Counted from the stretch's first letter, positions 50,745-54,809 are shown. The stretch is 57,277 bases of DNA from Oligoflexia bacterium (GCA_903881565.1 CAIRTR010000045.1:1-57277), one strand, 5' to 3'. Numbers and translations are program-made. Notes: generated by a model not told the origin, from the sequence alone.

Positions 50745-51023
50745 TTAGTCAAAAATCGTGTGAACCTGATCAACGATGCCAACAATCACCATTTGTGCGG
50801 GGAGAGGTTGAGTTGGATCGTCGAGAACCGCTTGACGAGCGCCGGTTCCTTCTTGCAATACAAGCACCGTGTCACCTGGGCCGGCTTGAACGGTATCGAT
50901 GGCGACCAGGGGCGTTTGATCCCCAAAACCTGGTTCAGGCTGTACACAAAGGAGAGGTCGGTTCGGGATCGAATCGAGTCTTGCCGAAGCGACGACTCTG
51001 GAAATGACTTTAGCTATGATCAT
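50745..51023 (-). CDS. BMC vertex protein (BMC-P, EutN/CcmL family)
   Basis: MIIAKVISRVVAS, VAIDTVQAGPGD, IVGIVD. Confidence 0.9.
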   Translation of the reverse strand: MIIAKVISRVVASARLDSIPNRPLLCVQPEPGFGDQTPLVAIDTVQAGPGDTVLVLQEGTGARQAVLDDPTQPLPAQMVIVGIVDQVHTIFD

Positions 51024-51282
51024 CGACAATCCCCGTTACGGCCGCATCGACCGGATAATTGTTGGCCAACTTTGCTCCCGGTATAGCGAGCGACGCCTCG
51101 CGTTTGCCCACCCAGATCACTAAATCCCCATCTCGTGCTCCTACGGCATCCACCGCGACAAAGGGTTCACCCAAAAGGTTGTGATCGTGATCGCAGGATT
51201 GCAACACTTTGAGCGGATAGCTCTGAAGATCTTTTACTTTTTGAGTCGCCACGACGGTTCCTTGTACAAAAGCTAATTGCAT
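51010..51282 (-). CDS. BMC vertex protein (BMC-P, EutN/CcmL family)
   Basis: VQGTVVATQK, VAVDAVGA, PVDAAVTGIVD. Confidence 0.9.
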   Translation of the reverse strand: MQLAFVQGTVVATQKVKDLQSYPLKVLQSCDHDHNLLGEPFVAVDAVGARDGDLVIWVGKREASLAIPGAKLANNYPVDAAVTGIVDDHS

Positions 51283-51303
51283 CGCATCTTATCACCGAAC
51301 TTA

Positions 51304-51918
51304 TTAGAAATAAGCCAGTGCCTCCTCTTGGGGTCTTGGGATCATGTCCACTCTACAAAAACTCTCAAGCGTCTCTAGACTTTGTTGTGCCGCCTCGAGT
51401 GCCGCCTCAATCTCTTCTTGGCGGCCCATCAAGACGTAATAGGCTTTTCCGCCGATTCCTTGACCCAAACGCATCCGACACAATTGAACATTTGCCATCT
51501 TAAGCGCCCGATCCGCCGATACGATGGCGCCTGCTAGGGTTGAGGACTCGACCACACCCAAAGATTCCTCAGGATTTGCCGGAATCAATTTAGGTTGAAA
51601 CGTCCAAATCGAATCCAAAAAAGGTGCGATCTGCTCATGCACCCCCGGAATCAGTATCTGCCTGACGGCGGTGCCCTCCGCCAGATCAAGGGCTGAAAAA
51701 TAGGCCGCCTCAACCGACGCCACATCGCCCACAAACAAAAGGACGTGTTTGCCCGAGGAAACGGGTTGCGAGGCAATGACTTTGACGGGCGCTTTTTTCA
51801 ACACGGTATCGGTCAAAAACAGGCCGCGCGAAATACTGGAAAACTCAATGAACGCAAGCGCAGGAAGTTGATCTGTGCCGACGTCATGGAGTGTTCTTCT
51901 GCGGAGAGCTTCGCCCAT
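51304..51918 (-). CDS. Tandem BMC shell protein (BMC-T, PduT/HO-T1-like)
   Basis: Two BMC domains: ALAFIEFSSISRG...GDVASV and LGVVE...GIGGKA...IPRP; Ser in PVSSGK where PduT has its Fe-S-binding Cys. Confidence 0.88.
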   Translation of the reverse strand: MGEALRRRTLHDVGTDQLPALAFIEFSSISRGLFLTDTVLKKAPVKVIASQPVSSGKHVLLFVGDVASVEAAYFSALDLAEGTAVRQILIPGVHEQIAPFLDSIWTFQPKLIPANPEESLGVVESSTLAGAIVSADRALKMANVQLCRMRLGQGIGGKAYYVLMGRQEEIEAALEAAQQSLETLESFCRVDMIPRPQEEALAYF

Positions 51919-51948
51919 CTAGTGTTGAATCCTTTTTTCGAAACTTAG

Positions 51949-53424
51949 CTATACAACCCGAAAATAATCCTTCAAAACACAGCGCCGGACGCGCGAAAAA
52001 GTGCGACAGCTCGTCAGTCCCTCACCCGTGGGTGATGCGATTGTAAAGGACGAAAATCCTTCGCCGCCTAAACCCAGACCCGCGTAGCTTGGAGCGTTTT
52101 TTACAAAGATCGACGTGTTCACGGCGCGAGCCATGTTGTGCAGATTCTCGATGTTCTTGCTGTACATCAGGGAGGTGTGACCAAAACCATGCTCCACCCG
52201 TACCGCCATCTCAATGGCTTCATCCACATTGCGCACGCGCACCAGCGGAATCAACGGCATCAAGAGTTCAACCTGCACAAACGGATGATTCTCTTCGACT
52301 TCGCAAAACACGATGCGAGTGTCGGATCCCGCTTGAATGCCAATGGAGGCCAGGATCACGCTGGCGTCTTTGCCCACGAATTTCTTATTAGGATATTTTC
52401 CGCCGCTTTCGTGATCCAGCACATGCTGTTCGAGCTGTTTCACTTGTTGAGCATTAACCAGGTACCCTCCGTATTGCTGCAACTTGCGTTTGAGTTCATC
52501 GGCGATGGAGGCCACGGCAATGATTTCTTTTTCGGCGATACAGACGATGTTGTTATCGAGTGAGGCGCCTTTGATGATCCCATCGGCAGCTTGATCAAGG
52601 TCTGCAGTTTCATCCACGACCACGGGAGGGTTTCCAGGGCCTGCAGCGATCACTTTTTTGCCCGAAGCCATCGCGGCTTTCACGACAGCAGGACCGCCGG
52701 TGACGACGAGCAGGCGGATTCCGGGGTGTTTCATCAGAGCGCCCGCAGTTTCAATCGTCGGTTCTGCGACCATCACGAGGCAGCCGTGAGGGCCGCCGTT
52801 TCGGACGATCACGTCATTCATGATTTCCATTGTACGAATCGAGACCCGCTTCGCTGAAGGGTGCGGATTGAAGACGACGGCGTTTCCGGCCGAGATCATC
52901 CCGATGCCGTTATTAATGATCGTTTCGCTGGGGTTGGTCGTCGGCGTGATGGATCCGATAATCCCGTAAGGCGCATACTCCAGCATCGTGAGTCCGTCGT
53001 CACCGGTGAACGCAGTGGACTCGAGGTACTCAGGGCCTGGAGTTTTATCAATGACGAGACGATTCTTGTGCTTCTTGTCTTCAACGCGGCCCAAGCCCGT
53101 TTCCTGAACCGCGAGTGTTGAGAGTTCATCAATGTGCTGGCGAAGGGATTCGCGCATTTCGGTGATGATTTTTTTGCGAAGGGTCAGCGTAAGTGCTGCC
53201 CATTTTGGCTGAGCTGCGCGTGCCGCTGCAACCGCCTCATCCATATTCGCGTAAGTGACCGACGAATGGGAACTCACCGAAACAGCGACGGACCCCGCTG
53301 TTTTTTCAAATGAACGTTTAGGAGCTCCTGCCGAAAAAGAACCGGCCTGGGTTCCCATCAATCGCGAGGCTACAGCCCCGGCTAATTGATTAATCTGATC
53401 TTCGCTAAGTTGGTTTAAGTTCAT
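51949..53424 (-). CDS. CoA-acylating aldehyde dehydrogenase (EutE/PduP-like) with N-terminal encapsulation peptide
   Basis: LSEDQINQLAGAVASRL amphipathic helix and linker; ETGLGR, PTTNPSET, VTGG, AGPGNPP, DNNIVCIAEK, ELLMP, PTGEG. Confidence 0.93.
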   Translation of the reverse strand: MNLNQLSEDQINQLAGAVASRLMGTQAGSFSAGAPKRSFEKTAGSVAVSVSSHSSVTYANMDEAVAAARAAQPKWAALTLTLRKKIITEMRESLRQHIDELSTLAVQETGLGRVEDKKHKNRLVIDKTPGPEYLESTAFTGDDGLTMLEYAPYGIIGSITPTTNPSETIINNGIGMISAGNAVVFNPHPSAKRVSIRTMEIMNDVIVRNGGPHGCLVMVAEPTIETAGALMKHPGIRLLVVTGGPAVVKAAMASGKKVIAAGPGNPPVVVDETADLDQAADGIIKGASLDNNIVCIAEKEIIAVASIADELKRKLQQYGGYLVNAQQVKQLEQHVLDHESGGKYPNKKFVGKDASVILASIGIQAGSDTRIVFCEVEENHPFVQVELLMPLIPLVRVRNVDEAIEMAVRVEHGFGHTSLMYSKNIENLHNMARAVNTSIFVKNAPSYAGLGLGGEGFSSFTIASPTGEGLTSCRTFSRVRRCVLKDYFRVV

Positions 53425-53467
53425 ATTTTGGTACTACTTTCAGGCGAGGCTATTCAACTCCGTTCGG

Positions 53468-53755
53468 TTATTTCCGAAAAGTTGTTTTGCCCCCGGTCTC
53501 AATCTCATCAACAATCGCCATAATGACGGTATCGACGGGACGGTTTTGAGTTACGTCTGTTTGCCGAGCGCTGGAACCCGAGGCGTAGAGCACGACTTCG
53601 CCGACCCCCGCACCCACCGAATCCACTGCGACGACCGTTGAACCTTTGGGCGTTCCCGTGAGATCCGTTTGCTGCACCAAAAGGAGCGTGAGCCCCTCAA
53701 GTTTCGGGTCTTTTCGAGACGCCACGACTGTTCCGATGACTTTCCCTACGTTCAC
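53468..53755 (-). CDS. BMC vertex protein (BMC-P, EutN/CcmL family)
   Basis: [41 protein letters not shown] start with GGAGG SD. Confidence 0.92.
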
Positions 53756-53825
53756 AGGGGTTACCCTCCGATACTCACACACACTTTTAGGTGTGAGATG
53801 AATTCATGCTAAAAACGAGTCGTTT

Positions 53826-54128
53826 TTAAGCTTTTGACTTGCCTTCGGGCTTAATGCGACCCAAAGGAAGAACGGAATCCACGTTTGCATGTGGGCGAGG
53901 AATCACGTGTACGGAAACCATTTCGCCGACTTTTTCAGCCGCGCGAGCGCCAGCTTCAACAGCAGCCTTCACCGCGGCCACGTCGCCACGAACGATCGCG
54001 GTCACATAACCGCCGCCGATGCGCTCATAGCCTACGAGTTCAACGCGTGCTGCTTTAAGCATCGCATCTGAAGCTTCGACCAAACCTACAAAACCTTTTG
54101 TTTCAATCATTCCTAATGCATCTGACAT
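53826..54128 (-). CDS. BMC hexamer shell protein (BMC-H)
   Basis: [43 protein letters not shown]. Confidence 0.97.
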
Positions 54129-54188
54129 ATTGTGTTCTCCCTTTTTTGAAGTTTAATTTAGAAACTATTTTACTTACTATTTCGTTCG

Positions 54189-54809
54189 CTATTTTTCTAC
54201 GCCCGTTAATCCATTAATTGCACTCATCGCTGCCTTTGCCGCTTCGTCAATGTCGGCTTCTTTTCCTGCGAGGGTGAGACGCCCGAACGCTCCAAAAGCG
54301 CGAACATCAACCAACGTTACATTAGCCGCTTTTTCGGCTTCATTTGCCGCATAAACGATGTAGCCTGCAGGATCAGTTTCCAAAATGAACATGCTCATTC
54401 CGGGAAGGATCATGGATCCTCGGCGCCCCTGGCGATTGACATTGACGGCGTGATCGGGCTCGAGAGCGCGAATCGTTTCGGTCCAAGCCACTTTGCACTT
54501 TTGGCGCTGATCGACGGTTTGCTCAATCATTTTCAAAATGGCTTCGCCAGCCTGACGAACTTCACCTTGGTCTTCATGGTGAACTTCAAGCGTTCCGAAG
54601 GATCGCTCAACGACCTGCTGACCCAAGCGCACTTTGGTAGACTTGAGCGCGGTGTCGGTCAAGCGATGAATCGCCATCCCGGGTGCCGTCTCAATCCAAA
54701 GCGAAGCATCGCCCGGAATCGGCAAAAACCCCTGTGAGGTCGTGCCCAGGTATTCGGCCAATTGCGGCTGCAATGAATCGATAAAAATGTAGGTTCGAAG
54801 CTTAATCAT
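54189..54809 (-). CDS. Permuted double-stacking BMC trimer (BMC-Tdp, CsoS1D/CcmP family)
   Basis: [46 protein letters not shown]. Start ATG 54809 with GGGGGAG SD. Confidence 0.92.

Follow-up and report, generated by a model that had tools for sequence, protein, structure and literature searches.

We analysed a 57,277-nucleotide stretch of DNA from an Oligoflexia bacterium (GCA_903881565.1, CAIRTR010000045.1:1-57277; hereafter the window), which carries an operon for the shell of a bacterial microcompartment (BMC). The operon consists of seven genes lying head to tail on the minus strand at 50745-54809, with intergenic gaps of at most 60 nt as calculated from the gene coordinates, and encodes, in this order, BMC-Tdp, BMC-H, BMC-P, an aldehyde dehydrogenase (AldDH), BMC-Ts and two further BMC-P proteins (Table 1). 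All seven reading frames are intact. An initial annotation, made from the sequence alone, had proposed these genes, and profile and PDB searches confirmed both their positions and their families. Three of the genes matched PF00936 and three others PF03319, each above the curated cut-off; this is the domain content generally used to recognise a BMC locus. Family searches of the operon revealed no aldehyde-generating enzyme, alcohol dehydrogenase, phosphotransacylase, transporter or regulator inside it.

The shell proteins are most similar to, or closely match, those of the Haliangium-type (HO) shell, which is the best-studied synthetic microcompartment chassis and the main structural and engineering model. 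BMC-Tdp, whose ATG start at 54809 is preceded by the ribosome-binding site GGGAG, was matched by the NCBIfam CcmP model NF053796 with 239 bits, under the equivalog cut-off of 340, and its PDB matches were 7dhq (3e-86), CsoS1D (3f56, 2e-83), HO-5816 (5v74, 1e-71) and CcmP (2.5e-57). BMC-H matched HO-5815 (PDB 5djb) with an E-value of 4e-44, and 72 of 96 residues were counted as identical in the alignment, which bears out the similarity to Hoch_5815 noted initially; the PDB names HO-5816 for the Tdp protein and HO-5815 for BMC-H also fit the Hoch_ numbering given there. The top PDB match of the first BMC-P paralogue was 5v74_A1, the BMC-P chain of the HO shell (2e-37), and its true start is likely the GTG at 53755, which is preceded by GGAGG, rather than 53782. 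For BMC-Ts, the best natural PDB match was 5dih (6e-30), while TIGR02526 reached 100 bits, under its cut-off. The three BMC-P paralogues are mutually 37-42% identical. If the ATG at 51023 is the start of the third, this gene overlaps the end of the second by 14 nt. No further PF03319 gene was found in the genome. BMC-H is the only single-domain hexamer gene found; the remaining PF00936 matches genome-wide fall in tandem genes. Among them is a fourth tandem-BMC gene, of the EutL type, which lies outside the operon on another contig (C150), so that the operon does hold three distinct pentamers and one hexamer, as first described, but not the complete shell set. Compared with the nearest locus (L013), dN/dS, the ratio of nonsynonymous to synonymous substitution rates, was 0.03-0.08 across the six shell genes, which are under strong purifying selection.

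The AldDH is of the CoA-acylating type, and NF011927 matched it with 669 bits against a cut-off of 403. An AlphaFold2 model built from a 13-sequence alignment placed a helix at residues 8-23 and disorder at residues 24-52, followed by the catalytic fold, with a mean predicted local distance difference test score (pLDDT) of 68 and a helix pLDDT of about 55-63. This N-terminus, a helix with a disordered linker, has the predicted architecture of an encapsulation peptide (EP). Among the AldDH proteins of related loci, 41 further distinct N-termini share the pattern of the helix (hydrophobic-x2-hydrophobic pair-x2-V-hydrophobic-x-R/K-L). At the closest of these loci (L013:1713-3185, plus strand), an in-frame stop interrupts the AldDH frame within the linker that joins helix and catalytic domain, giving frames at 1713-1880 and 1884-3185; an error of sequencing may be the cause, or tag and enzyme may be naturally uncoupled.

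Table 1. Features of the operon and its boundaries, in window coordinates
Feature	Position	Strand	Basis
BMC-Tdp, CsoS1D/CcmP-like tandem-domain double-stacking-type shell trimer, 206 aa, first gene of the operon	54189..54809	-	
BMC-H, 100 aa	53826..54128	-	PF00936, 107 bits
BMC-P paralogue 1, HO-5814-like pentamer	53468..53782 (or from 53755)	-	PF03319, 101 bits
AldDH, CoA-acylating type, EutE/PduP-like, 491 aa	51949..53424	-	NF011927
Encapsulation-peptide-like helix of AldDH (predicted), residues 8-23	53356..53403	-	AlphaFold2 prediction
BMC-Ts, PduT/HO-5812-like tandem-domain trimer, 204 aa, two BMC domains	51304..51918	-	
BMC-P paralogue 2, 90 aa	51010..51282	-	PF03319, 77.5 bits
BMC-P paralogue 3, about 92 aa	50745..51023	-	PF03319, 67 bits
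tRNA-Asn(GTT), conserved upstream boundary of the operon site, not part of the organelle	54969..55043	+	
Membrane protein with HAMP-like segment, conserved downstream boundary gene	50158..50715	-	Weak sensor-kinase HAMP-region matches

Locus type, host and chromosomal site

To place the operon among its relatives, 79 of 80 related loci were sorted by gene order. The full order of the window, Tdp-H-P-AldDH-Ts-P-P, was found in 7 of the 80 loci (L013, L014, L015, L018, L019, L023 and L026), and six contig-truncated loci (L016, L017, L020, L021, L022 and L034) are consistent with it. The order Tdp-H-P-AldDH-Ts was found in 23 loci (22 if L084, from an unpublished genome, is omitted), mostly titled Myxococcota, including Haliangiales (L065 and L071) and Kofleriaceae, plus Bradymonadales. 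Another 33 loci, from Riflebacteria, Eisenbacteria and unnamed records, show the order H-P-AldDH-gap-Ts without Tdp, 20 of them with DeoB nearby, and we took these, by gene order alone, to be similar to the sugar-phosphate utilising (SPU) microcompartments. In a FastTree phylogeny of 81 AldDH proteins, the window AldDH fell within a Bdellovibrionota clade with a support of 99. In this FastTree analysis, the only one behind the deeper grouping, the clade was nested in a group of 44 rows (support 93) with the Tdp-H-P-AldDH-Ts loci of Myxococcota and Bradymonadales, while the H-P-AldDH-gap-Ts loci lay on the other main branch, of 37 rows. With its BMC-P triplet, its CsoS1D/CcmP-like BMC-Tdp and the core order Tdp-H-P-AldDH-Ts, the operon is, judged by gene content and order, an HO-type locus. 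The Haliangium-type order had been recognised initially, and it holds up in the 23 loci as well as in the PDB searches, where HO proteins were the best or near-best matches.

HO loci in 40 other genomes are reported by Sutter et al. (2021, Nat Commun 12:3809, PMC8217296), whose text on this type characterises them by a BMC-P triplet, a similar BMC-Tdp and an AldDH from an HO clade near those of SPU5 and SPU7. Type I, as in H. ochraceum, has two BMC-P genes and an aldolase at a satellite locus, whereas type II has these in the main locus; in addition, pfam01791 enzymes with EP-like extensions are described elsewhere in HO genomes, as are 'EUT module' satellites (EUT, ethanolamine utilisation). 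The catalogue also describes EUT3 and fused SPU6 forms. Set against these descriptions, the window's genome resembles the compartment of H. ochraceum and the HO locus type in its core order, its single BMC-H, its BMC-P triplet, its BMC-Tdp and the predicted EP-like helix on AldDH, and in that no signature enzyme stands beside the core, a pfam01791 aldolase with an EP-like extension is encoded elsewhere and an EutBC-EutL satellite is present. The window differs from type I in that both extra BMC-P genes lie in the main locus, and from type II in that the aldolase lies outside it, at the head of a deoCBA-punA operon on contig C87; the gene that follows the window's BMC-P pair encodes the HAMP-like membrane protein, while two related loci, L109 and L124, do have the type II arrangement. 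The operon had been described as a consolidated version of the Haliangium organelle; such a form is not new, since type II is already included in the same catalogue, which may also list these very genomes under older 'Deltaproteobacteria' labels. In its treatment of HO loci, that paper has already published the locus type, its consolidation, a tagged aldolase away from the main locus and satellites of the EUT kind.

The operon matches neither the EUT nor the SPU type. No Eut enzyme lies in it, whereas EUT loci have EutB, EutC and EutA alongside the shell genes. SPU loci contain deoxyribose-phosphate aldolase (DERA, pfam01791) and an RpiB-type isomerase (pfam02502), as described in the SPU text of Dwyer, Sutter and Kerfeld (2024, Commun Biol 7:1562, PMC11585597), whereas in the window's genome DeoC is encoded on C87 and an unextended RpiB on C126. 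Of the complete metabolosome core, comprising an AldDH, a phosphotransacylase and an alcohol dehydrogenase with encapsulation peptides, only the AldDH, with its EP-like helix, was found.

The window is contig C45 of an assembly of 4.56 Mb in 323 contigs (50.4% G+C, 98.75% complete). With AldDH as the query, the nearest locus was that of 'Bdellovibrionota bacterium FG-2' (92% identity), followed by metagenome-assembled genomes of Bacteriovoracia, Bacteriovoracaceae, Bdellovibrionia and Oligoflexia (68-77%) and by more distant matches in Myxococcota, Bradymonadales and Riflebacteria-like records (52-62%). The loci titled Bdellovibrionota are flanked, like the window's operon, by the housekeeping genes prs, pth, ychF and slt. 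Based on the titles of the nearest loci and these common flanking genes, the contig is not myxobacterial but native to a Bdellovibrionota lineage, in line with the Bdellovibrionota-like host that the initial annotation had supposed. The host differs in this respect from H. ochraceum, as it does in its G+C content of about 50% and in a satellite without EutA. Our literature searches found no paper linking microcompartments with Bdellovibrionota or its genera, and none reporting a tested native function of the HO compartment.

The chromosomal site of the operon is conserved, with the layout prs-pth-ychF-slt-(DUF1284)-HAMP-like gene-[operon]-tRNA-Asn. The tRNA-Asn gene flanks the operon in L013, L014, L015, L018, L019 and L023, and three genomes of the class in which no BMC-P gene was found keep it at the site. 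In L156 and L157 the site is empty, no shell gene separating the HAMP-like gene from the tRNA-Asn that follows it. In L155 (6835-7209, minus strand; genome G105, no BMC-P found), a lone BMC-H, scoring 157 bits against its counterpart in the window, lies between the two, at the position of the full operon in the window; it appears to be what remained when the other operon genes were deleted. BMC-P genes were found in 20 of 127 genomes of the class and 17 of 76 genera, with three copies in 17 of the 20, and the gene order of the operon is kept across several families of the host's order. The empty and remnant sites, the conserved position and the patchy distribution suggest that the operon is ancestral at the tRNA-Asn site and was lost repeatedly, while repeated insertion beside tRNA-Asn may be an alternative origin of this distribution. 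The conserved site with its empty and relic states and the class-wide co-occurrence counts are new here.

Candidate cargo encoded elsewhere in the genome

The initial annotation had stated that there is no signature enzyme and that the cargo might be encoded elsewhere. The first statement holds for the operon alone and fails for the genome, and the second was borne out by two candidates, DeoC on C87 and EutBC-EutL on C150. The outcome that the initial annotation had named as refuting its view, a known class with its signature enzyme elsewhere, therefore holds in part, though the locus is not of the EUT type or the propanediol utilisation (PDU) type.

Contig C87 carries the operon deoC-deoB-deoA-punA, with the gene for DeoC (DERA) in first place. 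TIGR00126 covers residues 99-307 of the 336-aa protein, leaving a 98-residue N-terminal extension, in which structure prediction (mean pLDDT 70) placed a helix at residues 27-44, numbered from the MAFQPRG start, between disordered stretches at 1-26 and 46-93. The register of this helix matches the AldDH helix motif, and we regard it as a putative tag similar to an encapsulation peptide. DeoC is the only DeoC-type aldolase of the genome; the second PF01791 match is a 351-residue class I aldolase-like protein. In two relatives, L109 and L124, an extension-bearing DeoC directly follows Ts-P-P, and in L124 it is followed by a second Tdp. What is new here is that the putatively tagged DERA stands first in a complete operon for nucleoside catabolism.

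To count the co-occurrence of the extension with shell genes, DeoC was scored as aligning into the extension if the query start was at or before residue 30. Among the 19 other BMC-P-positive genomes of the class, DeoC aligned into the extension in 14, and the helix could be recognised by eye in 3 more; of the remaining two, one is 74% complete and without a DeoC match, and the other, G012, has a DeoC without the extension. Among the BMC-P-negative genomes, DeoC aligned into the extension in 3 of 107, and the 30 best matches include 11 DeoC loci of BMC-P-negative genomes in which the protein begins at, or close to, its catalytic domain. A helix-bearing DeoC was also found in 5 of the 5 Myxococcota/Bradymonadales genomes with HO loci that were checked (4 of 4 without the unpublished G128).

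An alignment of DeoC from 12 genomes, 11 with shell genes plus one without (L108/G115), revealed that, in addition to the helix, the extreme N-terminus (M-A/V-F-Q-P-R) and, after a variable linker, the extreme C-terminus (K-x-Y-K-N-S-L-Y) are conserved (for example L098:1510-2508). In E. coli DERA, a C-terminal tyrosine is known to be important. In HO-bearing genomes, at three Myxococcota loci (L163, L164 and L165) and in L124 (1489-2427, minus strand), the extension carries a C-x2-C-x2-C cluster between helix and catalytic domain, which may be a metal or iron-sulphur site; the DeoC of the window's genome is without these cysteines and keeps the conserved 'GADR' segment that follows.

Contig C150 carries genes for an amino-acid (APC) permease, two proteins without a Pfam match, EutB (657 bits), EutC (241 bits) and the shell protein of the EutL type (281 bits; PDB 3u27, 7e-58); EutB, EutC and EutL are translationally coupled. 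The two proteins between permease and EutB (L010:5544-7668, plus strand, on C150) are of 397 and 289 aa and have no NCBIfam match either, and the former adjoins EutB in G054 too. EutL was found in 4 of the 127 genomes of the class, all of them BMC-P-positive, and hence in 3 of the 19 other BMC-P-positive genomes. One of these three is G012, from the same order as the window's genome, in which a fused locus (L132:6962-14713, plus strand) reads EutB-EutC-EutL-H-P-AldDH-(1.3 kb)-Ts-Tdp with a permease-like gene adjoining; by its gene order it resembles the EUT3 or the fused SPU6 catalogue forms. A PduO-type adenosyltransferase is also present in the window's genome. We read EutBC-EutL as an optional add-on module. 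Like the EUT3 loci and EUT-module satellites in the text of Sutter et al. (PMC8217296), it combines EutB, EutC and an EutL-type BMC-Tsp and is linked with a BMC-Tdp-containing shell; it differs from them in lying on another contig, in having no EutA and in its presence in only 4 of the 127 genomes.

Other enzymes expected of a metabolosome were sought in the genome. No match to PF06130 (PduL) was found, and the sole PF01515 match was rejected as a phosphotransacylase: it is the C-terminal part of a 799-residue frame whose N-terminus, read by eye, starts like a malic enzyme. Searches for iron-containing alcohol dehydrogenases gave one protein on C151, without an N-terminal extension, and a second match that reads, by eye, as a dehydroquinate-synthase-like protein. 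The RpiB on C126 has no N-terminal extension either.

Proposed function and its alternatives

We think it probable, with reservations set out below, that the operon serves a Bacteriovoracia-like bacterium as main locus for an HO-type metabolosome that confines acetaldehyde and is fed by deoxyribose 5-phosphate, with ethanolamine as an add-on. The icosahedral shell would consist of a single hexamer, trimers of two kinds and three pentamer paralogues, all from the window operon, and AldDH would be cargo, presumably drawn into the shell by its N-terminal amphipathic helix. Nucleoside phosphorylases and phosphopentomutase would produce deoxyribose 5-phosphate in the cytoplasm; this would enter the shell, where encapsulated DERA would cleave it into glyceraldehyde 3-phosphate plus acetaldehyde, and AldDH would convert the trapped acetaldehyde to acetyl-CoA. 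EutBC-EutL behind its permease would allow ethanolamine to feed the same acetaldehyde step. Gene content, family membership, synteny, co-occurrence and purifying selection are established by the data; that DERA and the lyase are encapsulated, which substrates are used and how cofactors are handled is what we infer from them. As no phosphotransacylase or tagged alcohol dehydrogenase was found, CoA, acetyl-CoA and NAD(H) would have to cross the shell, possibly through a gated BMC-Tdp pore.

This scheme has known parallels. In the Salmonella EUT1 and PDU systems, a CoA-acylating dehydrogenase with an EP tag oxidises an aldehyde that the shell traps. The window's system would share this principle, but its locus, and the genome as far as searched, lacks a phosphotransacylase, a tagged alcohol dehydrogenase, a regulator and a reactivase, and its one hexamer gene and three pentamer genes are the inverse of the usual proportions. 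Another is the SPU type, for which the relevant text of Dwyer et al. (PMC11585597) likewise proposes cleavage by an N-terminally extended DERA to acetaldehyde and glyceraldehyde 3-phosphate, oxidation by AldDH to acetyl-CoA and, in compartments without a phosphotransacylase, cofactor exchange through the BMC-Tdp pore; here too, BMC-Tdp is present where no phosphotransacylase is encoded. The link between HO loci and DERA is itself already proposed in the discussion of this type by Sutter et al. (PMC8217296), as catabolism of nucleic-acid sugars with EUT modules as add-ons. Because the idea is already in print, the gain here is supporting comparative evidence and a good experimental system rather than a new kind of organelle.

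Several observations weigh against this reading. The three BMC-P-negative genomes with an extension-bearing DeoC, which are 77-89% complete, contain no BMC-domain gene that could be found. Among 20 further BMC-P-negative DeoC loci (L135-L154), chosen for long open frames, about 17 have a possible N-terminal extension of 30-85 residues, so the extension is not exclusive to shell-bearing genomes; some of these stretches are helix-like, and they are not alignable to the DeoC extension of the window's genome. They could represent a decaying tag or a lineage trait that was later recruited. The co-occurrence counts overstate independence because the genomes are kin. A hydrophobic-moment test of the AldDH and DeoC helices set neither apart, as 0.32 and 0.20 of shuffles reached the observed value. 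A genome scan with a profile of 42 distinct AldDH helices scored only AldDH itself (14.5 bits, E 0.03), and the DeoC helix was absent among the 40 matches listed; having missed that helix, the scan is too insensitive to exclude other cargo. Furthermore, EutB and EutC have no recognisable encapsulation peptide, and EutA was not found in the genome. The sole PF06277 match (35 bits), considered as EutA, was rejected: with an ftsQ-like frame on one side and an ftsZ-like frame on the other, it reads as FtsA.

Some of these points would be accommodated if the compartment scavenged aldehydes made elsewhere, as the initial annotation had suggested for those from the digestion of prey or biomass, or if it held a signature enzyme that we did not recognise, the DeoC extension then having a role in oligomerisation or regulation. 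The lack of an aldehyde-forming enzyme in the operon itself, the DeoC extensions of shell-less relatives, including the three genomes without any BMC gene, and the amphipathicity test that did not discriminate are all in keeping with this explanation, but we judge it improbable. The conserved DeoC helix tracks the shell genes (17 of 19 versus 3 of 107), this pairing is repeated in another phylum, the helix shares the register of the AldDH motif, and an extension-bearing DeoC directly follows the BMC-P pair in L109 and L124; moreover, by the general logic of microcompartments, an aldehyde made outside the shell gains nothing by confinement. We likewise think it unlikely that the genome encodes a split ethanolamine-utilisation organelle, with EutBC as the main signature enzyme, EutL as the entry pore and the window operon supplying the other shell proteins and the acetaldehyde dehydrogenase. 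Such an organelle would explain the translational coupling of EutB, EutC and EutL behind an APC permease, the restriction of EutL to BMC-P-positive genomes, the G012 fusion to H-P-AldDH-Ts-Tdp and the adenosyltransferase. However, EutL is present in so few of the other BMC-P-positive genomes that the HO operon is evidently kept without it; the lack of a visible encapsulation peptide on EutB and EutC and the failure to find EutA and a phosphotransacylase speak against it as well, and EUT modules are treated as extensions, not as the primary function, where HO loci are discussed by Sutter et al. (PMC8217296). That the operon is a decaying or silent relic, heading for loss as in related genomes, is very improbable: its patchy distribution (20 of 127 genomes) and the lone BMC-H in L155 would agree with decay, but the seven frames are intact, the shell genes show the low dN/dS values given above and several families of the order have preserved the same arrangement of genes.

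For the metabolosome fed by deoxyribose 5-phosphate, a physiological setting can be proposed. Bacteriovoracia are a lineage that preys on other bacteria. It is conceivable, though in our view doubtful, that their HO compartment is an ancestral, repeatedly lost organelle that burns prey leftovers, namely the deoxyribose of DNA through the tagged sole DERA and the ethanolamine of phosphatidylethanolamine through the optional EutBC-EutL module. If so, this would be the first physiological role for the HO shell, whose native function is described as enigmatic, and would exemplify a microcompartment that works without recycling its cofactors internally. With the seven genes for shell and core gathered in one operon, one putatively tagged DERA heading a nucleoside-catabolism operon and an optional ethanolamine module, the system is a compact testable case, in which sister genomes serve as natural 'knock-outs' at the same chromosomal site.

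Neighbouring genes

The HAMP-like gene downstream of the operon has a promoter-like site of its own at 50752-50724. It was ruled out as a part of the system because a homologue is present in 113 of the 127 genomes of the class, and it also occurs at empty sites. Between this gene and the lytic transglycosylase-like gene lies a gene for a DUF1284 protein (79 bits; 49729-50145, minus strand), which is found at this position in only some genomes among the loci examined. On the other side, beyond tRNA-Asn to the contig end (55508-57179, plus strand), a ParA-type ATPase (PF13614, 159 bits) precedes a protein of 284 aa that has an HTH_36 domain, a phage Rep-O-like match under the threshold and internal repeats rich in serine/threonine. 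This pair could be the edge of a mobile element or of a plasmid-like module integrated at the tRNA gene.

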